Shown piece by piece: positions 1,999-63,100 of a DNA stretch of 64,000 nt (position 1 is the first letter of the stretch; every line of letters begins with the position of its first letter). The stretch is from a virus, in IMG/VR virus record IMGVR_UViG_3300005732_000005, positions 76,375 through 140,374 of that record. One strand, given 5' to 3'. Made by a program: the position numbers and the translations under genes. Under the pieces are notes generated by a model. The model was not told where the DNA came from, made no database searches, and saw only the letters and a program-made list of their open reading frames with translations.

Positions 1999-3090
1999 TT
2001 AATTTCTTATTTCTAACTCAAAAAGTATACATTGTTTCATATCAGGTAAATAGTTTGTTGAATCCGCATACAGTACTATTTGGATAGTGTTAGCTTGATA
2101 GTTACCAGAAGTTTTACCACAAGCCACCCATGCTTCATCGAAGGTTAAACTGAAACCTGTAGTCCCTGTGACGTTTGGTAAAGGTCTCATATCTTCATTG
2201 TGTAGACCTATCTCCCATACAGGATTGGTAAGACCAGTTAAAAGTCCTGCACCTGAACTACCATTTAATGTCAATGCACCATTACCTTCAGTTAAGGAAA
2301 CATCCCACACCTCGTTACCTGTCAAAGATCCTATGGAAACTCTACCACTACCAAAAGCTGTCAGGTTAGTTATCCCTGCACTGCCAGATGCATCTCCTAG
2401 TATAATATCTACAGTTTCATGAAATGTCTCGTTGCCTCCCTGAGAATGTATCGCAGTATACCCTGTAGCTACGTTCTGGGGGCTATCCGAGTCTAAGGCG
2501 GTAATTATAAACCTGAGACCTTCCTCTCTGTACCTATTAGTTACTGGGTATTTTATGCCTTTATTCCCCCACGCTTGTCTATACAACTCTAAAGTGGTCT
2601 TGGTGTCTGTGTGGTTCATTCTTACAGCACCATCGTAATCTGACAATTGCCTAGGTCGTTGATCATTGAAACCACTTAACATTTTCCATCTTATAGAAGC
2701 AGGTACTATCGGTGGGGTAAATCCTGCAGTACCAGCTACATCTCCTAAGGGGTCTATACCGTCATACACTAAACTGTCATTCCATCCCACAAACCCTTCA
2801 TAACGTGCATTCCAAATATTACCATCTGAGTATACACCTCCTCCTGTATAACCTTGCCAGTGTCCGTCAGGGATGTTTATCCAACCATCTTTACCTGTAG
2901 GTATATAATCTGGGTCTGGGGGCGGGTACTCTTGACCAACATCAGGTAATCCTCCACTTCCACCGTCAACATTACCACCTTTACCGAAACCTGCACCTAT
3001 AAGACCAGTCCCACTCCAACCATTATGTCTAGCACCCATATTAATTTCTTGGATGATACCTGACCACCCATTATGTCTTGAATTAGGCAT
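1999..3090 (-). CDS. putative virion fibre/decoration protein
   Basis: 363 aa, rich in Gly/Thr/Trp; duplicated N-terminal RHNGWSG; Gly/Pro linker; downstream of the late-type motif at 3520-3528. Confidence 0.4.
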   Translation of the reverse strand: MPNSRHNGWSGIIQEINMGARHNGWSGTGLIGAGFGKGGNVDGGSGGLPDVGQEYPPPDPDYIPTGKDGWINIPDGHWQGYTGGGVYSDGNIWNARYEGFVGWNDSLVYDGIDPLGDVAGTAGFTPPIVPASIRWKMLSGFNDQRPRQLSDYDGAVRMNHTDTKTTLELYRQAWGNKGIKYPVTNRYREEGLRFIITALDSDSPQNVATGYTAIHSQGGNETFHETVDIILGDASGSAGITNLTAFGSGRVSIGSLTGNEVWDVSLTEGNGALTLNGSSGAGLLTGLTNPVWEIGLHNEDMRPLPNVTGTTGFSLTFDEAWVACGKTSGNYQANTIQIVLYADSTNYLPDMKQCILFELEIRN

Positions 3091-3651: not shown

Positions 3652-4011
3652 ATGCGTAAGTTAGAAATGGTTTCAAAGGTATACCCTGAGGTTGTAGAAG
3701 TTAAAGGTAGTGATGCAGCTATCACTCATGAGTTAGATCGTGTTGTTGATTCTCTAGAAGTAATCCCTGCTGGTATCACTCTTATTGCAGATGGTTCTGT
3801 TGTTACCGCTGCTGCAGGTGATGATATTGTAGTGACAGGTTCTCTTGACGGTATTAACTTCTTCGGTTTAGGTGCTACACATGCTGCACCAGCTACTATG
3901 GCACTAGATGAGCCTATCCCTGTAGCAATCACTTCTGCTGTTAAATACCTTCGTTTTACTTCTGCTCAAATCCAGAATACGGAAGAGTGGAAAGCTCATA
4001 TCGTACTTTAA
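3652..4011 (+). CDS. small beta-rich putative structural protein
   Basis: 119 aa, GCT/GGT/GTT-rich codons like the sheath gene, terminator follows at ~4024-4050. Confidence 0.5.
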   Translation: MRKLEMVSKVYPEVVEVKGSDAAITHELDRVVDSLEVIPAGITLIADGSVVTAAAGDDIVVTGSLDGINFFGLGATHAAPATMALDEPIPVAITSAVKYLRFTSAQIQNTEEWKAHIVL

Positions 4012-5986: not shown

Positions 5987-7240
5987 TTGAGAGGAATAGA
6001 AGATAGTTTTACAGGTACAAAGTTTGATACTCCTAAAGGAGGTGTACTTACTGTGCTAGGTCATAATGGTTTGGCAGGGAATAAGAGGAAGTATTTCGTT
6101 GAGTGCAACATTTGTAGCAAGGATGAGGAGTTATTTCCTGATGGTTTTGTCTCCAGTAAAGGTAACCTTTTAATTGGTAGGATTCCGTGTGGCTGTGCTG
6201 TTAGTACTAAGTGGACGGAAGATCAAAGAATTGTCCAGATAAAACGGAAGTGTGAAGAGAGGGGTTACGATTTTCTAGGGTTGGCAGAAGAGTTTAAAGG
6301 TGGTCGTACTAAATTGAAGTTGTACAATCCCAAAACAAACAATACTTGGGAAAGTTCAAATATAACAGGTTTCCTTCGAGGAAGTGGAGATCCTATTGAA
6401 GGGTTTTTGAAAACTAAGGAGGCTAGTACTTCACTTGATGAGGTACACATTGAAGAGTTTATTAAGACAGGTAAGTTCTTAGAAGGCACAACCTTCACAC
6501 GTAATACAACTAAGAAGGATTCTAGAGGAAGGTATCCGTACTGGGATGTAATATGTCCTTTGTGCAGTGATGATGAATACGTGAAGAATCGTGTATGTTC
6601 TGGTATTTTTTCATGCGCGACCAGTCACCTTAAAAGGGGTAAACTTACCTGCAGGTGCTCCAAAACTTACCGTTGGACACAAGATCAAAGAGAGTATCAA
6701 ATCGGAAAAGTATGCTCGCAAGAAAACCTTACTTTCATTGGTTGGGAGGGAGAGTATAAAAACTGTAAAAGTAAATTTAATTGGAAGTGCTCAGAAGGCC
6801 ATAGGAACGTAACTTCTTTAAATGATTTCTTAAAAGGTATCAGATGTACACAATGTTTTCAAGAATACTCGGTTATTAACGGTTATTACCCTGACCGAAC
6901 GAAAGAACAAGATTACTTATATATCTACTATTTATCTGAGGAGAATTATCTAAAGGTAGGAAGAAGCTTCAACTTAAGCCGAAGGCAAAAAGAGAACCAA
7001 ATACGTATAAATAACTACAACCCACATTCAAAAATACGTGTCCTTAAAACCTTTACAGGTACTCACAAAGATATATACGATCTTGAACAAAAAATCCTAT
7101 CTGACTTGAAAAGTTTCCAAGTAAATGGTTACGGTTCGAGTGAATTATTGTCTGTAGAAGCCTTACCTTCTATATGGAATATCATTAATAGTTGTCAGGA
7201 AGTGACTCTATACCAAAATAAACTTATAAAAGAGGAATAA
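5987..7240 (+). mobile_element. free-standing homing endonuclease: Zn-ribbon repeats plus C-terminal GIY-YIG-like (T5orf172-type) domain
   Basis: repeated CxxC...CxC..W modules; C-terminal YLYIYYLSEENYLKVGRSFNLSRR...E; TTG start after GAGGAGG. Confidence 0.7.
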
Positions 7241-8943: not shown

Positions 8944-9540
8944 TTAATCAAAATATGATTTAACGTTGTAAGATGTCTTATGTTCAGTAGTGACTGTTTG
9001 TAAATTAGTTTTCACTGTTTGGTTATAAGTATTACCTTCATTGATACTGCCAATCTCTACACCAGTATCATAAATCTTACCAGAGAAACGGCTACCACCA
9101 CTCACTTCTGTCACAGACTGATTATCCATCGTAGTGATATTTGTGTGAGATAAACGCTCTGAAGAGTTACCTGCCTTGAATGCTCCCAACTCGGTTGACA
9201 CTTCGCAGATAGTCCCTGTTGCAGTGTTATCAATTGTTTGAGTAATATCTAGTTGTGTAGTGGATTTTTCCCAAGACTTGAAATCGCCGATCACAGAGTA
9301 ATCATTACCTTTATTCACATCAGTAACACAACCCGAACAAGGATACACTGTGATATCATAATCACCTTTGATACCCTTAAGACTTACATTTGACCAAGAC
9401 TTGTCTTGACCAGTGATCTTTACATCACCAGTTGTTCTAACAGTTTTTGTCCCTGTAGTAAAGTTGCTTGAGAAGTCTACAGCTTGTGAACTGAATGTTG
9501 TTGCTAAAAGTAATGTTGCTACTGCTAATAATTTTTTCAT
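8944..9540 (-). CDS. exported Thr/Ser-rich beta protein with Sec signal peptide
   Basis: MKKLLAVATLLLATTFSSQA signal; GAGGA RBS; TGTTATAAT upstream (9578-9586). Confidence 0.65.
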   Translation of the reverse strand: MKKLLAVATLLLATTFSSQAVDFSSNFTTGTKTVRTTGDVKITGQDKSWSNVSLKGIKGDYDITVYPCSGCVTDVNKGNDYSVIGDFKSWEKSTTQLDITQTIDNTATGTICEVSTELGAFKAGNSSERLSHTNITTMDNQSVTEVSGGSRFSGKIYDTGVEIGSINEGNTYNQTVKTNLQTVTTEHKTSYNVKSYFD

Positions 9541-9622: not shown

Positions 9623-11548
9623 TCACTCCTTCAAACTACCCTCCTTTGTTCTGATTAAGTATATTTCACTCTCATCACAATTACGTTCATAATGATACCA
9701 AGATCCAGGACGGTGTTTTCTGCAACTCAATCTTAAGAAAGTTGTTCCGTTAAAAAGAGTGGATTCTACATCTAACACATCTACAACGTTACCCTCGTCC
9801 ATATAAAAATCCGCATCCCCACTAACAACAATTTCCACCTCATCACCAACCTTAATCCCTAAATCCTTCCAATTTTCCAGAGTGATACGTACTCTGTTAG
9901 AGCTTACCTTATTGGTAGGTGTTTCTAGCTTCTCAGTGATACTCTGAGGGACTTTCTCTACCAAGCAAGGTGAATACTCCTCGGGAGATAACATACGCTC
10001 CAAAGCTTTCTCATGAGCCGATAGAATACCTTTTGCAAAGTGTAATTGTTTCTCAAGGGTTTTAATCTTAAGATTAATCTCTTCTACAGCAAGTTTATCG
10101 TTGTAAATAGTTTCTTGTAAATTTGTAATTTGTTTCATAATTATAACCTCTCTAAGATTGAAACCGCTATTAAAATTAAAACTGGAGTAAATAACGCACC
10201 CATACAAAAACCTTTCCAAAAATCATCCTTATCTAGCGAATTCACTTCCCTGCAGTGTAGTGCTTTTGGTGGAACTAATCTACTCTTACCATTACTACCT
10301 GAAAATTCTGACATCACTCTTTCTCCTCTAGCTAAAAACCACTTCCCACAATACCACTATCATTGCAAACAAGCAACCTATTTTTGCACCTAATGTGAAA
10401 CTTTGCACAACACGTTTCTTCACCCTAGGAACTCTTTTCATAATGGCTTTGCTTGAGAGTAATGTCAATGCTACCAAATAACAAATTGTTGCATAAATTA
10501 TTATTGGAATAGCTGTCACTTTGTTTTCTCCTCAAACTTTTTCTTTAAACGTAGATATTCCTTCTTCTCGAAATATTCTTTTGGTAGAGTGCAAGTGTAT
10601 TTCTGAGTACCTGCTTGTCGAGAACAATTCCTCCGAAAGAACTTATCTATTGTATCAAAATAGCCACCTGAGTCAATACCTTTTTCAGGGATATGTTTCA
10701 CTAAGATTCCATGATCACGGCAATCTACTTCTGTCATATATGCTTGGTGACCTGACAATACTCTATAATAACATTTACCAGAGACCTTTCCTTGGTATAA
10801 TTTACTACTCCCTCCCCAAACACCTCTGTTAATATCTTTAATCTCTACGTAACCCTCTGGCAGAGCATAACTCATACTAGGTAATCCAACCATACCTACC
10901 AACAATAAAACCTTCTTAAAACTCATTCTACGTCCTCCTAAAATCAATTTCACAAACAAGAAAGCCCTCTCACCAAGACTCCCTCTTCAATAAGGAAATA
11001 TTAGCAAAAGGGCTTATGTTGTGTCAAGAGTTATTTTTGTAAATCCACCAATTTAATTTCAATAAGGCCACATTTATAACGAGACTGTCCTTCCCACCAC
11101 TCATCCACTTCGTCGTCAGTTTTCCAACCCAAAATCTCATAAGTGTGGTTACTTAGAAACAATTCAATACTATCCGTTTTACAATAATGAGCTGTCTCAA
11201 TAATAACACCTGAACCTAAAGTGTCATGTACAACCCAAAATTTAGGTGAAAGTTTTTGTTGTTTGTTCATTATCTTCTCCTTTATATAAAATTTAAACAT
11301 CCATATAAATAAGCTTTTATAGACTTATCGCAATTAGCTCCGTTAATAACTTGATATTCTCCGTCACCTAAATCGAAATACAATTGCGAACCTGTACTCA
11401 ACGATGACATAAAACCTGCCTTTTGGTAAACTTTAAAATCTGCAAACCATTTTGGTTCGTCATAATGAGAGTTAATCTCGTTTAATAGGTCAGCGATCTC
11501 TTCATCAGGGTGTTGTGGTTTGTAAGGTAAAAATGTTGTTGATGGCAT
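9623..11548 (-). CDS. run of small hypothetical genes (9623-10138, 10328-10519, 10516-10926, 11031-11270, 11282-11548)
   Basis: head-to-tail ORFs with GGAG/GAGG RBS; no family recognised. Confidence 0.55.
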
Positions 11549-16753: not shown

Positions 16754-17473
16754 TTAAATAAACTCATCCTCTTTAAGTTTCTTATGTAAATAAAGCTCAC
16801 CTTTTCCAGTGACCATTGTTACATTGAAAACTCGACTGTTCCTAGTAGTCTGTTTCACCACAAAGTAACCTTGATCCACAAATCTTTGGTAAGGGCGGTT
16901 GTTGTCCATAAGGATCTTAAGTTCTCTTAATTTATCGTATAGCTTATTCCTGCCTACACCAAGAGCTTTCGCTACACTATTCATATCCTGCAGATTAACT
17001 ACCTCACTAACATCATTGGCGAAATCAATCTTGTGCTGATTGTCTTTTCTGAAAATCAGTCCTTCTCTGATTATAGTTTTAGCATCTGCAGGTAAGTCTT
17101 TGTAGAATGTCTCCATAATAAGGTCTACATCACTAACAAAACCACCTGTCTTACGTATTGTTGGTAATACTTCTTCCATCACCCAATCTTGGAATTCTTC
17201 TGCATTAGACATCCTACTCCTCATTACCAACCTATACACATCTTTCTCAGGGATGAGTTTAATACCTGTAGGTTTTGCATCCATACCTAATTCTAACGTT
17301 TCGTTATAATTAAGTTTAATCAAGAACTTACAATGGTCTTTTAAGGTTTTACTAGGATTTGTGTACTCTAGTATCTTACAAACCTCGTTACCTACAAAAT
17401 AAGGTTTATCCTCATAAACCACCACTTCCAATTGACCAAAAACTTCATGGTCAAACTTATTCACTTTCGTCAT
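16754..17473 (-). CDS. BRO-N + ANT/KilAC antirepressor
   Basis: FGQLEVV..PYFVGNEVCKILEY...PEKDVYRLVMRS...FQDWVMEEVLPTIRKTG; C-terminal GRNKLY..LR...PYQRFVDQGYF..VTGKG. Confidence 0.9.
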   Translation of the reverse strand: MTKVNKFDHEVFGQLEVVVYEDKPYFVGNEVCKILEYTNPSKTLKDHCKFLIKLNYNETLELGMDAKPTGIKLIPEKDVYRLVMRSRMSNAEEFQDWVMEEVLPTIRKTGGFVSDVDLIMETFYKDLPADAKTIIREGLIFRKDNQHKIDFANDVSEVVNLQDMNSVAKALGVGRNKLYDKLRELKILMDNNRPYQRFVDQGYFVVKQTTRNSRVFNVTMVTGKGELYLHKKLKEDEFI

Positions 17474-17545
17474 AATCTTTCTCCTCTTTTATTAATAAAT
17501 TTATTCCCACATTTAACCTTCCTTTTCAAAACTACTCTTCCATAA

Positions 17546-17881
17546 TCATTCCTCCATCAAATTTTCAATGTCACTAAGTATATCGTCACAATCTTCAAAG
17601 TCAACCATTTCTTCAAATAAATTTTCCTCGGGATTGTTCATTAAGAAAGTGTTTCTCAAGTCTTCAATATCCAGACAAGGGTCTACCTTAGACCAACACC
17701 CCACTTCCAACTCGCCACTTTCTGCCATCTTCCTTAACTCATTAAGACGTTCTCTTATCTTAAGATACTCTTGTTTTGGCATACGATCTATGAAGTCAAG
17801 ATGTAACCTAGCAAAGTAAAGTTTATCCCAATACTCTTTGTTTATAACAGGATCTAGGAATGACGGAACATGACCTTTCAT
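17546..17881 (-). CDS. hypothetical protein
   Basis: 111 aa ORF with GGAG RBS. Confidence 0.55.
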   Translation of the reverse strand: MKGHVPSFLDPVINKEYWDKLYFARLHLDFIDRMPKQEYLKIRERLNELRKMAESGELEVGCWSKVDPCLDIEDLRNTFLMNNPEENLFEEMVDFEDCDDILSDIENLMEE

Positions 17882-18117
17882 ATAATACTCTCCAAAACAT
17901 CTTTCAAAATAAACATATCTATCACTAACAATATCAACCCAACAAGAACTTTAATCTCCAAGGGAATACTTGGGTCAACAAGAACGTTAATTAAAATAAA
18001 AGCCATTACACACATGATCTGCTCCTGATTTATTTAGTAAGAACATTGTAAGAGAAGAAACCTTTTACGTCAACAACTTTTTGAAAATTTTATCTAATTG
18101 ATAATGGTTGTTATTCC

Positions 18118-18126
18118 TGTTATAAT
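18118..18126 (+). promoter_or_regulatory. putative late promoter element TGTTATAAT (extended -10)
   Basis: same 9-mer precedes other islands at 597, 3520(-), 5932, 9578(-), 26644 and 43243. Confidence 0.6.
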
Positions 18127-18151
18127 AACTAATAAACACGGAGACATATTT

Positions 18152-18292
18152 ATGACAAAGAAAGTTGTTAAAGTGACACGTAATTATCCAGATGGTTCCA
18201 AAGAGGAACTTGAGATTGAGGTCACTCCTAAAAAGAAAACAACTCCTCGCAAAAAGAGGACAACTAATGCAAATAAAGATAACGAGAAGTAA
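18152..18292 (+). CDS. small basic protein
   Basis: GGAG RBS; Lys/Arg-rich tail TPKKKTTPRKKR. Confidence 0.55.
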   Translation: MTKKVVKVTRNYPDGSKEELEIEVTPKKKTTPRKKRTTNANKDNEK

Positions 18293-18743
18293 AGATAGAC
18301 GACCATTAAATAGGTTATTATCTAGAATCCAAACTCTCCACAATAAAAGTGTCTCAATAGGTTACTTTAAAGACCAACGTGCTCACAAACAAGCTGATAT
18401 GCCTTATGCAAACCTCCTTTTTATACACGCTTTTGGTTTGGTAGATGGTGCTCCTGTGAGGGATGTGATGTCTAACATTAAACCTTTCTTGGGTGGTGGT
18501 GAGCAACAGAGTAACTTTTTTAAAGACCTTCTTAAGAGATATTTTAAGAAAGGTTCTAGATATACAGCACAAGAGTTTCTGAGTGATATTGGCCAGAGTT
18601 ATAGAGATAAAGGTAAGGCAGTGTTTGGTAACCCTAACTTACTGGAAGTTACTAACAATCCTACACCTTTACTAGACACTAAAGAGCTTAGAGATAACTT
18701 TGCTTACAAAACTTCTATTACAATGAAAACAGTTACGAGGTAG
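18267..18743 (+). CDS. neck / tail completion protein
   Basis: VSIGYF...YANLLFIHAFG...NPTPLLDTKELR motifs; position in the cluster. Confidence 0.7.
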   Translation: MQIKITRSKDRRPLNRLLSRIQTLHNKSVSIGYFKDQRAHKQADMPYANLLFIHAFGLVDGAPVRDVMSNIKPFLGGGEQQSNFFKDLLKRYFKKGSRYTAQEFLSDIGQSYRDKGKAVFGNPNLLEVTNNPTPLLDTKELRDNFAYKTSITMKTVTR

Positions 18744-18745
18744 GT

Positions 18746-19111
18746 ATGTCGATTAGTTTATTTAACAGATCAGAGACCTTGTACAGGACAAACTCTAACA
18801 ATTGGTATTATGGTGAAGATGGTAGACCTGTCTTCACGGAAGATACTGAGACAATAACTTGCTCTATTCAACCATATCGTGATGGTAAAAATACCTTCCG
18901 AGTGCCAGAGGGTTTCCAAAGTATTTACGGTATAAAGGTTTACTCTAAAGAACAGATTATTGCCAACGATGAAGTGCTTGAGACGCTCGGAGACGAGATT
19001 GAATATGAAGGTCAAAGGTTTGTATGTATTGATGTAGCAAACTTCACAGGACACGGCCTGACTATCCCTGAACACTACTTAGCTCTGTTCTACAGAAAGG
19101 ATAAACGATAA
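18746..19111 (+). CDS. head closure (stopper) protein
   Basis: CSIQP..PEG...IKVYS...DEIEYEGQRF. Confidence 0.7.
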   Translation: MSISLFNRSETLYRTNSNNWYYGEDGRPVFTEDTETITCSIQPYRDGKNTFRVPEGFQSIYGIKVYSKEQIIANDEVLETLGDEIEYEGQRFVCIDVANFTGHGLTIPEHYLALFYRKDKR

Positions 19112-57635: not shown

Positions 57636-57978
57636 CCTCTCCTACAGCCTCTCTCCTTCACACAGAGAGGCTTTCTCCTCAAAGTAATACAATCACCCTC
57701 CAAACAGTTTTATCACCTCACAATTGTTCCTAGAGGCTTATATAGATAGGGAAATGATGTGATTTTTATCCCGCAGATTATTCAGACCTCGATAAAAGAT
57801 CCATTTCCCAAAAATTCCAACTCGATAAGATTTTTATTCCACAAATTATCCTAGAAGCAACTAAGTCAATTTCAAAAGATCATCCCCCAGATCTTTCTAG
57901 AGAAATCAAATTTCATTTCCCAAAAGATATCACTCCCAACAAAGGGATTTTTCTATAGAGGGAACTATTTTCAGACAG

Positions 57979-58059
57979 GATATGTTATAACATAACACTT
58001 TGCTAATGAGATGTTATATCGTAACAAAACGTTTTTGTAATGTTATATTATCACAAAAT
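57979..58059. promoter_or_regulatory. three tandem Zur-box-like palindromes, 29-bp period
   Basis: GATATGTTATAACATAACACTTT (57979), GAGATGTTATATCGTAACAAAAC (58008), GTAATGTTATATTATCACAAAAT (58037), compared with the gammaproteobacterial Zur consensus GAAATGTTATA-N-TATAACATTTC. Confidence 0.65.
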
Positions 58060-58066
58060 AAATAGT

Positions 58067-58082
58067 TGGCATGAAATTTGCT
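58067..58082 (+). promoter_or_regulatory. sigma54 (-24/-12) site
   Basis: TGGCATGAAATTTGCT: GG-N10-GC, one mismatch to TGGCACGNNNNTTGCW. Confidence 0.65.
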
Positions 58083-58200
58083 TGTTGTCAGGAATGGCAG
58101 GCAGGGGCGGTGTATATCTTCAAGACTTACTCTTTACTATGTATATAAGTATATAAAAGCCTGACCAATAGATCAAGCTCTATTTGCAAAAAGTTTTAAA

Positions 58201-58392
58201 TTATTTAAAGATGTTTTTATAAATCTTATATTGTAAATTAGAAACCTCTTTATAATACCTTTCACACTTATCTTTTATACTTTCATCAGTATGACCGTAA
58301 CAGTTCACAACCTGACCATTACTTAAAGAAATTATATGAGAAGTTTTCTTCCCTTGCTTAGTTTTAAAATCCTCAAAAGTAACAACCTTCAT
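58201..58392 (-). CDS. hypothetical protein
   Basis: 63 aa with AAGGTG RBS, TTGACA..TACAAT promoter, and a terminator at ~58155-58182. Confidence 0.6.
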   Translation of the reverse strand: MKVVTFEDFKTKQGKKTSHIISLSNGQVVNCYGHTDESIKDKCERYYKEVSNLQYKIYKNIFK

Positions 58393-58566
58393 AAAATCAC
58401 CTTTTCAATAATTAATTTGTTTCAACTGGGATACATTGTATAGAAGATTCTCTTGTTGTCAATAGGGGATTTAAAATAAAATTATTTTTAAAATAGTGTT
58501 GACTTGTCGAAAAGTATCATTATAATTGAGTGCAGATTTTGAGACAAATTAATTTAAGGTTATATT

Positions 58567-60148: not shown

Positions 60149-63100
60149 ATGAAAAAGTTATCAGTGAGTGAAAGAGAAGTTTTAGAGAAAGAGATTATTC
60201 AATTAAGACGTCAAAACTATGAACTAGAACAAATAGCACGTGAGGCAACGGAATCTGTGAAAAATCAAACCGATCTTTTAGATAGTATGATTAAACAAAG
60301 AGATGAATTTTTAGAATTATGTAAAAAATTAGCTAAAGAATTAAATTTAGATTTATTCGATTAAACCATTGACAGGGGATCAATTTTCCCCTAATATTCT
60401 AATTGTTCCCAAGGGAATGAAGCAAAGCTTCACCGCATAGCGGCATTTACTCAAGCAAACGGGAATTATCCCAAACTTAATAAAACGAGCATATTATGAA
60501 AAACTTAAACACTATCAAACACTACGCACTACCAACAAGAACACTTGCACGTCAATTCACTAACATTTTAAAAGAGCAAGGTCATAGCACAACTCAGCCT
60601 AAAAGTAAAAATTTAGATCATTGGCTTGTATCCACCAATACCAAGTTTAAAAAGCCTACTGCAAAGAAAGTGTTTACTGTTGTTAATGGGCAAGCTATCC
60701 AAGCTTAATTTAAAATAAAGTAATTTTCTTATTGACAGCTATTAACTTTTGAATAATAATAATGGTTGTCAATTCAAAAAGATTATTTAATTAAAATATG
60801 GTGAGATTATGAGTGTATCAGAATCAATCAAAGTAGGTTTTAACTGGTCGCAAGATTGGGATCAACTATTCACAGAGTGTGAACAACAAGCACAGACAAT
60901 TGATCAAGATTGGGAAAACGGATCAACACAATATAACTTTGTTGATAATAGCTGCCTTGTAATTTGTGGAACTTTTGTAAACAGTTACAACGCACAAAAT
61001 TAATTAAAATTTTTACAAAATAATCATTGACAGCCTGACACAATTTGATAAACTGAACGGGCTTTCAACAAACAATCTAAATCTTAGGAAAATATTATTA
61101 TGAAAACTTTCAACGCTTCTACAAATTGGCTAAACGGTGATGACAAGCACGAGCAAAAAGGCCGTGATCACTTTGCTGGGGTTCTTTCAACTCTAGAATT
61201 TTACCAAGAGCATGGAACAAGCTTAGAAGGCTACGAGCATGAAGGTAAAACCCGTAGAGATTTATTAGAAGAAGGTTTCGACCGTCACGAGGTGAAGGAA
61301 ATACTGGACATAATGTACGAGTTTGAACATGGCTGTGGTTCTTTCTATAACTACGGTTTAAGCTTTGATTTTGTGGAAGCAGACGAAGAGACAGACGGCT
61401 ATTATAGATTCCAAATTTGCTGGGGCGGTCCTTCTAGTGAGATCAGATTCTTTCCAGACGGACAAATAGAGGCGGTTTACATGGATTGGTTTGTTGGTGT
61501 AGGTTTTAACGTTACAACTTGGGACGCTTTCAACTGGTTAGGGAATTGGTTCAAAGAGTGCGAATGTATAGATTTCTATTCTAAAGAGATGAGCGAAGTT
61601 TGGGCAGAGGATTACAGAATCGTAAACGGCCTTTGTGAAGACGAAGAGGAATATTAATCAACAAACATTCAAACGAGGCAATACGCCCCAAACAATCTAA
61701 ATTTGAAATAGGAATATATTATCATGAAAATTTCACCAATGAAAAGAAAAGTAAACCGTCTACACTCAGAAAGCTATGAGCGCGGCCTTGAACGTCAACA
61801 AGAACATAAATCTGTTAAAACGAGTCGTAACATTGCTCGAAAGAATAAACGTCTTAAAATGGCTATGGGAGCGTAAAGGATGATGGTTAATTCAATTAAC
61901 GCTTTTATCAAGAACCTATTTGCAGACAAACAGCCCGAACAAGATGTAATAGTTGTTCAAAGTGTAAAAGATTTGTTTAACCGTGGTTATATGCTCAACA
62001 GTGAACAACTTTTTGATGATGCAATAGAACGCATTAAAAAGAATAGTTTAACTTTAAATATTAGTTTACCAGACAGGGAGTTAGTTTTTAAAGAGGGGGT
62101 TTTGATATGCAAAAGTTAGAAGACTTGATCGCCAGTGCTTATACTTTCTTAGAGTTTGGTAAAAGTTTTGCAAATTATCAGAGTGATTTAATAAATTTAC
62201 AAGATGGACTTACAAGAGAACAATTGAGAGGTGATTGGGATATGATAAGAGCGGATTACAATCTAGTTAAAAAGTATATGACAGATACCGCCTTACAGCA
62301 CGCTTATAGTTTAGTAAAGGATCACTATTAAACAAAATATTGTTAGATAATGATCTATCTATCCGTAGCCGATCATTTTCTAAAGTGGTCGGCTTTTTTG
62401 CACCTAAAATAAGCTCAAAATAAATTTTGAATTTAATTGAAATTATTTATTGACAAGGGTGCTTTATGTGATAAAGTTATACATATTGAAGCAAGGGACG
62501 TTCCCAAGCAAATTAATTGAGTGAGAAAAGGTATGAATACAAACATCATATACAAGAACGGCACAAACGGTGTGAAATGGTTCAAGGATTATTCTGCGGC
62601 TAGAAATTTCTTTTTCAAAAATCGTGATAGTGTAAAGAGTGTGACAGATAGAATGGGGAATAGAGTATAATGGATGGTGCAGAGATTATGAAAGAAGTTG
62701 AGAGGGTGAAGCAATCAACTAAAACAATACACCTTTTAAATGAATTGTTGAAAACAAAACTTGACAGCAATCAACACTACCTATTAAGTGAAATTATTAA
62801 AAGTTATGGAAAAGAGTGGGAATAATAGTTGATCTTTAAATAATAGGCGTTTACAATAGCGTCTATTGATAAAGAAGCTTTAACAAAGCAAACATTTAAC
62901 AAAGAGAGAATTTTAAAATGTTACAACTTGAAACTAGTGAACTATACGAAAAAGAGCTTTTAGAGTTTTTAACTGAAAGGATGGATGATGGCTGGGGAAA
63001 ACCTTTTGAGCTTTTCAGTGAAGAAGACAAAGAAACTATATTAGAAGAGTTTGCAAATTCAGCACAAGAACAATTCGAAAATCTAGGTTATCAAGAAATA

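Follow-up and report, generated by a model that had tools for sequence, protein, structure and literature searches.

The window, a 64,000-nt stretch of marine phage DNA, contains a gene-free gap (NCR1) in which three imperfect palindromes resembling Zur operators are followed by a sigma-54-type element and a conserved single-copy core. These sites are non-random, are confined to NCR1 and a second gene-free region (NCR2), match real Zur operators, and are conserved in other phages. Our preferred but tentative reading is that the three boxes are host Zur-type operators acting in cis, with NCR1 serving as a control region for several host factors. If Zur and sigma-54 polymerase do dock here, lytic marine phages would be able to read or manipulate the metal and nutrient state of their hosts via bare DNA, a control layer essentially undescribed beyond temperate phages using LexA or Fur, and the untranslated repeat regions of T5-like phages, which have long lacked an explanation, could be approached by experiment.

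The source genome is a single viral contig of 140,374 bp (36% G+C), of which the window is the last 64 kb. The presence of tail sheath, baseplate, tape-measure, primase-helicase, and DNA polymerase genes indicates a large myovirus. It is known from a metagenomic viral genome, and in its coding DNA it is most similar to Pseudoalteromonas phages PH357 and J2-1. The contig ends (genome 1–68 and 140307–140374) are identical over 68 nt, representing an assembly overlap; the assembly is therefore a closed circle that marks no physical genome ends. GC skew tracked gene direction only and gave no origin position. Family searches identified an RNA-repair cluster on the left side of NCR1 (two RNA ligases and a polynucleotide kinase); on its right side is a long run of small rightward ORFs and then UvdE. 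Two further neighboring ORFs have no family match. The preliminary description had placed the block at the head of the early region with no zinc-related gene nearby; it does precede a run of small early-type genes, and none of the neighbors covered by the family searches (RNA ligases, kinase, the two ORFs, and UvdE) is zinc-related. No loci related through the kinase gene were found.

The layout of NCR1 is given in Table 1. The gap contains no credible gene apart from one small minus-strand ORF, no Rfam family or tRNA, and, by the ORF list, no plus-strand ORF for ~480 nt downstream of the boxes. The minus-strand ORF had no match in family searches. It shares conserved His/Cys residues (H19, C31, H34, and C43) with its homolog in Vibrio phage 501E54-1, and these could make a small metal-binding site. 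The hairpin at its 3′ side is the probable terminator of this gene. As previously described, the adjacent ORFs have their own sigma-70 promoters. Beyond the gap, a 55-bp intergenic stretch (window 62822–62876) is 96% identical to PH357 (record ~11181–11234) between unalignable flanks; it has the layout of a sigma-70 promoter (TTGATC-17-TACAAT) and contains an inverted repeat.

Table 1. Sequence features of NCR1 (window coordinates; boxes are given as 23-mers)
Feature	Position	Strand	Basis or remark
NCR1, 930-bp gap from polynucleotide kinase to first small early-type gene	57636–58566	.	ORF list, family searches
Terminator-like hairpin and T-rich tail, 3′ of kinase gene	57647–57680	+	Read from sequence
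Two 26-nt direct repeats	57756–57781, 57824–57849 (span 57756–57849)	+	
TCCCAAAA motifs	57806–57813, 57918–57925	+	TCCCAAAA also upstream of boxes in J2-1
Box 1, core TGTTATAACATAACA	57979–58001	+	Perfect 6-3-6 palindrome
Box 2, core TGTTATATCGTAACA	58008–58030	+	Counterpart of box A in J2-1 and contig L034
Box 3, core TGTTATATTATCACA	58037–58059	+	Doubles as extended −10
Sigma-54-type −24/−12 element, TGGCAT-N5-TTGC	58068–58082	+	Exact pattern match
Conserved single-copy core, AGGAAT..GCAGGGGCGG TGTATATCTTCAA N7-9 TTTACTATG	58090–58160	+	BLAST, alignment
Hairpin then U-run	58156–58181	−	Minus-strand fold, z = −2.0
63-aa ORF	58201–58392	−	Homolog at equivalent place in Vibrio phage 501E54-1
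Divergent near-consensus sigma-70 promoters	58435–58526	.	Promoter scan
Rightward promoter, TTGACT-16-TATAAT	58499–58526	+	For early block
Leftward promoter, TTGACA-16-TACAAT	58462–58435	−	For small minus-strand ORF

The three TGTTATA-type palindromes noted earlier were recovered at an exact 29-bp spacing, with cores starting at 57983, 58012, and 58041. Zur, whose operator consensus is GAAATGTTATA-N-TATAACATTTC, occupies its site as a dimer of dimers and was crystallized on a 31-bp DNA (PMC4219657). Compared with the 7-1-7 Zur core TGTTATAWTATAACA, boxes 1, 2, and 3 have one, two, and one mismatches; compared with the 23-bp consensus including AAA/TTT flanks, they match at 19, 17, and 17 of the 23 positions, their right flanks being mostly AAA rather than TTT. 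The earlier description of the cores as Zur-like gained support from individual operators. Box 1 is the exact reverse complement of TGTTATGTTATAACA, the predicted Zur box of the Zur-regulated verA promoter in V. cholerae (PMC8248653), and its 15-mer recurs at genome position 3116 and in PH357. Box 3 agrees at 14 of 15 positions with the E. coli znuA/znuC operator core TGTTATAATATCACA (znuA strand); the sole difference lies at the central W position, and the TATCACA deviation is common to both. Every box contains an extended −10 (TGnTATAWY), as found in the E. coli znuA operator region. In box 3 it reads TGnTATATT with GTAACA 17 bp upstream and scored 9/12 plus TG in the promoter scan. About half of the boxes have C at position −7 of this putative −10.

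The distribution of the motif in the genome was non-random. Only six matches to the Zur core with up to two mismatches occur in 140 kb, three in NCR1 and three in NCR2 (genome 3111, 3116, and 4578), two regions that together account for ~2% of the genome; Markov-shuffled genomes gave 1.9 scattered matches each. NCR1, NCR2, and the small genes between them form an ~11-kb arc that holds all Zur-core and sigma-54 matches, and this confinement rules out a chance origin of the boxes. The heptamer TGTTATA itself is at background level (28 and 27 copies compared with ~25 expected per strand); since it is not enriched genome-wide, a general phage promoter motif was also ruled out.

At least 120 genome stretches contain the perfect 19-nt Zur palindrome. 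In the sampled marine genomes (eight, comprising seven Vibrionaceae and one Pseudidiomarina), nine of ten genes flanking a palindrome encode ZnuA, a ZnuC-type ABC protein, or RibA. The perfect palindrome adjoins znuA, znuC, or ribA in Vibrio, Grimontia, Enterovibrio, Photobacterium, and Salinivibrio, and in a Pseudoalteromonas MAG the flanking gene belongs to the MerC family. The phage boxes have the 15-bp core and the internal extended −10 in common with gammaproteobacterial Zur operators, and their unit size agrees with the ~30-bp dimer-of-dimers footprint. They differ from known operators in lying on a lytic phage without an attached zinc-homeostasis gene, in standing three in tandem, and in the degeneracy of their right half and flanks. 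On balance, sequence comparison supports their assignment as putative Zur-type (Fur-family) operators.

The sigma-54 −24/−12 site reported after the boxes was also borne out, as one member of a cluster. TGGCATgaaatTTGC is an exact GG-N10-GC element, and the stretch extended by one nucleotide, TGGCATgaaatTTGCT (58068–58083), fits TGGCAY-N5-TTGCW. The genome contains six exact −24/−12 matches, compared with 0.19 expected, all located between genome positions 134441 and 3889, across the assembly junction. These counts support a sigma-54-type identity for the candidate element in NCR1. Neither a sigma-54 activator in the phage (PF00158 search) nor a downstream ORF for the element was found. Transcriptionally inactive sites for sigma-54 holoenzyme occur in E. 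coli (PMC4591121), and the phage element resembles them in combining a consensus −24/−12 with the lack of both an activator and a gene to transcribe; as with those sites, a stable closed complex may form here. It differs from them in being carried on phage DNA, within a six-site cluster in the ~11-kb arc. Searches of the phage proteins found no Fur-family protein and no sigma-54 (PF04552), besides the missing activator, implying that the binders of such sites would be host proteins.

NCR2 (genome 3050–4976, outside the window) is a larger, 1.9-kb gene-free array ~9 kb downstream of NCR1, in which the site types of NCR1 recur. No other part of the genome is as dense in palindromes: perfect inverted repeats reach counts of 19 and 16 per 500 bp, compared with a mean of 1.7. 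More than 35 different short palindromes are present, many with a 6-3-6 structure, often 28–31 bp apart and followed by AAA(G); the box trio in NCR1 thus has the same unit size and layout. Among the NCR2 sites are three Zur-type cores, three sigma-54-type sites (a further one at 3826 fits a looser pattern only), and many GAGAAT-N-ATTCT units, and G-rich and C-rich blocks of 100 bp alternate sharply. Judged by matches to the 19-bp Fur box (up to five mismatches), of which only three among 24 genome-wide fall in NCR2, the GAGAAT-N-ATTCT units are not classical Fur boxes. A scan for DnaA boxes found none in NCR1 or NCR2 of this phage. NCR2 stems often close with C-G. Selection of the palindromes only as hairpins or cruciforms was rejected, because the same palindromes recur letter for letter across genera with no co-variation; such recurrence in different phage genera points to sequence-specific recognition.

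The arrangement of the two regions is common to several phages. In this phage, PH357, J2-1, and H101, the large array directly precedes a gene for a 426-aa protein (phrog_2467/PF27199, YonV_C; genome 4977–6257 here), and NCR1 lies 6–9 kb from the array, beyond a block of small genes. The model of the 426-aa protein (pLDDT 91) has an XPD/DinG-like SF2 helicase fold, which was set aside as a clue because it says nothing on the role of the array.

We next examined the conservation of NCR1. BLAST searches with NCR1 found only a ~55-bp part of the core (58100–58153) in other phages. Pattern scanning and reading of the context identified the core in six lineages, namely this phage, J2-1, L034 (a 129.5-kb uncultured viral contig), H101, and Vibrio phages 424E50-1 and 501E54-1. 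An alignment of the six lineages revealed no conserved RNA fold in the core; overall, the RNA searches yielded no tRNA, known family, or conserved fold. The core was also rejected as a sigma-70 promoter, as no hexamer pair is conserved at a workable spacing. In this phage, J2-1, L034, and H101, ATGTTATA boxes precede the core, always in the same orientation. Box number varies (three here, two in J2-1, two in L034, and one in H101), and boxes A and B of J2-1 and L034 are spaced by 27 bp compared with 29 bp here. Conservation in relatives, which the preliminary description had put forward as a check, applies to the boxes and their place upstream of the core, but not to spacing or number. The counterparts of boxes 2 and 3 in J2-1 and L034 are boxes A and B, respectively, and the flanks atgaga (left of box 2 and of both A boxes) and ttgtta agree as well. 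The box 3 15-mer is identical in J2-1, where a sigma-54-like element follows after 21 nt, and matches at 14 of 15 positions in PH357 and H101. Consensus DnaA boxes are located between the boxes and the core in H101, J2-1, and L034, at the position occupied by the sigma-54 element in this phage.

The half-sites are not equally constrained. Conservation of only the TGTTATA half in relatives had been named in advance as a sign of phage late-promoter or terminase sites. Across all NCR1 copies the left half ATGTTATA is indeed invariant and the right half keeps only T11, A12, C14, and A15 (TA-CA), so that the pattern named in advance is half borne out. Zur-core matches numbered nine in PH357, five in H101, and 12 in J2-1, compared with one to two for a reversed control, and most of them lie within arrays. 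Compared with a closer relative, whose helicase is 76% identical, TTATGTTATA-nnn-TAACAAA forms an island of identity in otherwise unalignable DNA. In Vibrio phages 424E50-1 and 501E54-1 the core is preceded by repeats of CCATACTGTATAA in place of boxes, and no Zur-core match was found in these two phages; the repeats upstream of their cores read (A/C)CATACTGTATAA (locus 2880–3000 in 424E50-1 and 2870–2990 in 501E54-1). A scan of viral contigs for tandem ATGTTATA was uninformative, chance matches predominating among the matches listed.

Binding of Zur and sigma-54 polymerase, and its action in cis, are what we infer from these patterns. At approximately one footprint for every 29 bp, the boxes would line the left border of the early gene block and, together with the sigma-54 element and the 55-bp core, would load host proteins onto the phage DNA, specifically zinc-bound Zur and sigma-54 RNA polymerase in a closed complex. 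Because an extended −10 is embedded in the boxes, much as in the znuA operator region of E. coli, they would most simply act as Zur gates for rightward transcription, or for access, into the conserved core, depending on the state of the host. This reading is favored because of the matches to real operators, the absence of a phage-encoded binder of these site types, the embedded extended −10, and the substitution of site types across lineages; the occurrence of DnaA or sigma-54 sites at an equivalent place in different lineages is suggestive of a cis-acting complex. Several observations count against it. The boxes have neither a zinc-related gene nearby nor a plus-strand ORF within ~480 nt, the flanks of boxes 2 and 3 are poor (17/23), and all NCR1 copies have a degenerate right half-site, unlike an ideal symmetric Zur site. 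The change in spacing from 29 bp to 27 bp in relatives keeps no helical phase, and the frequent C at position −7, present in about half of the boxes, means that some cannot be good promoters. Moreover, given dozens of other 6-3-6 palindromes in NCR2, the Zur-like ones could be one variant of a wider family read by another protein.

The regularity of the repeats raises the alternative that they are iterons or operators for a phage protein, for example a replication initiator or an early repressor. NCR1 would then be a switch or an origin, and its boxes would look like Zur boxes by coincidence or through mimicry. The direct repeats do adjoin a single-copy core with a G-run and then AT-rich DNA, DnaA boxes stand beside the core in three lineages, and the left half is invariant with fixed polarity; the different repeats of the two Vibrio phages are what would be expected if sites and binder co-evolve. 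However, no candidate binder or initiator was found, the adjacent ORFs having no family match, and the small minus-strand ORF is common to a Vibrio phage without boxes. The 27–29-bp spacing is not a multiple of the helical repeat, and coincidence would have to account for the exact agreement with two real Zur operators. We regard this alternative as rather unlikely. The extended −10 in every box would also fit plain tandem sigma-70 promoters without a repressor, whose short rightward product, a non-coding or antisense RNA, would cross the core and oppose the small minus-strand gene. Promoter scoring picked up box 3, with GTAACA as its −35 and a spacer of 17 bp, and at least one box whose last letter is T (TATATT or TATACT) is retained in every lineage. 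Nevertheless, the key T at −7 is so often C, the −35-like element is supplied by the previous box, leaving a 15-bp spacer in relatives with the 27-bp spacing, the TA-CA conservation in the right half is unexplained, and no conserved RNA structure follows downstream, which together make such promoters improbable.

The preliminary description had suggested a decoy or sponge. Acting in trans, the boxes and the NCR2 sites would titrate host repressors during phage replication, derepressing, for example, zinc uptake. A DNA titration locus of this kind exists in E. coli: datA is a cluster of regulator sites without a gene under its control. The phage sites resemble datA in this respect, lying in gene-free DNA without regulated cargo; several regulator-type motifs occur in one arc, packing is tight (28–31 bp per unit), and six sites per genome multiplied by a burst-size copy number might exceed a low-abundance repressor. 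They differ from datA in being few and in having their position tied to the conserved core. A titrating array would not readily account for that fixed neighborhood, nor for a box number that is not maintained among lineages (3, 2, 2, and 1), imperfect variants that are conserved letter for letter without drift to the optimum, and a constant half-site asymmetry; we consider a decoy unlikely and do not favor it. A broader version, in which NCR1 and NCR2 would form a protein-free host-takeover device, a library of operators titrating global regulators as the genome replicates, seems quite unlikely. It is likewise doubtful, to the same degree, that such a library, with sites for Zur, Fur-like proteins, and sigma-54, and for DnaA or LexA-like proteins in relatives, would reprogram metal, nitrogen, and replication control.

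The closest published analog of NCR1 and NCR2 is found in phage T5, whose first-step-transfer DNA, in the left terminal repeat, contains untranslated regions rich in repeats, palindromes, and paired DnaA boxes, for which an injection stop via binding of host DnaA has been proposed as a hypothesis only (Davison, bioRxiv 10.1101/866236). That preprint makes no mention of LexA, Fur, or Zur. Our scan of T5 revealed a 19/20 LexA box at 9409–9428, a second LexA-like site at 6211–6230, overlapping Fur-like sites at 9653–9718, and a weak Zur-like site at 6070. Both phages thus have gene-free blocks of repeats and palindromes amid pre-early or early genes, more conserved than the surrounding DNA and containing host-factor boxes (DnaA in the T5 literature, LexA-like and Fur-like by scan). 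Applied to our phage, the T5 model would have host proteins on NCR1 and NCR2 hold or pause the first-entering DNA at the membrane, an idea parallel to the roadblock or anchor that the preliminary description had proposed. The two arrays bracket ~9 kb of small early-type genes, as the T5 regions do within first-step-transfer DNA; the T5 regions carry LexA, DnaA, and Fur-like boxes; and NCR2 and the T5 injection-stop region have an 18/19-nt site in common. Against such an entry anchor, a tblastn search found no A1, A2, or dmp homologs of T5 in the phage, which has the sheath and baseplate genes of a myovirus; kinship with T5 was rejected, and the resemblance is therefore one of kind, not family. 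The phage also differs from T5 in having sigma-54 and Zur-type sites instead of DnaA boxes, and in palindrome density (19 compared with 5 per 500 bp). The assembly is circular and so marks no genome end at the arc, and even for T5 the mechanism is a hypothesis; we judge an entry anchor very improbable.

The preferred reading, docking of host Zur and sigma-54 polymerase in cis, is directly testable, as J2-1, H101, and PH357 have been cultured with Pseudoalteromonas hosts. The PH357 record contains a 2.1-kb gene-free array (16919–19085) with the same box types and a sigma-54-type site. The PH357 array also carries an ARG-box-like site, TGAATAAGTATTCA, and a palindrome, GCGAAT-CGTTATC-ATTCGC, that resembles one in the T5 injection-stop region.
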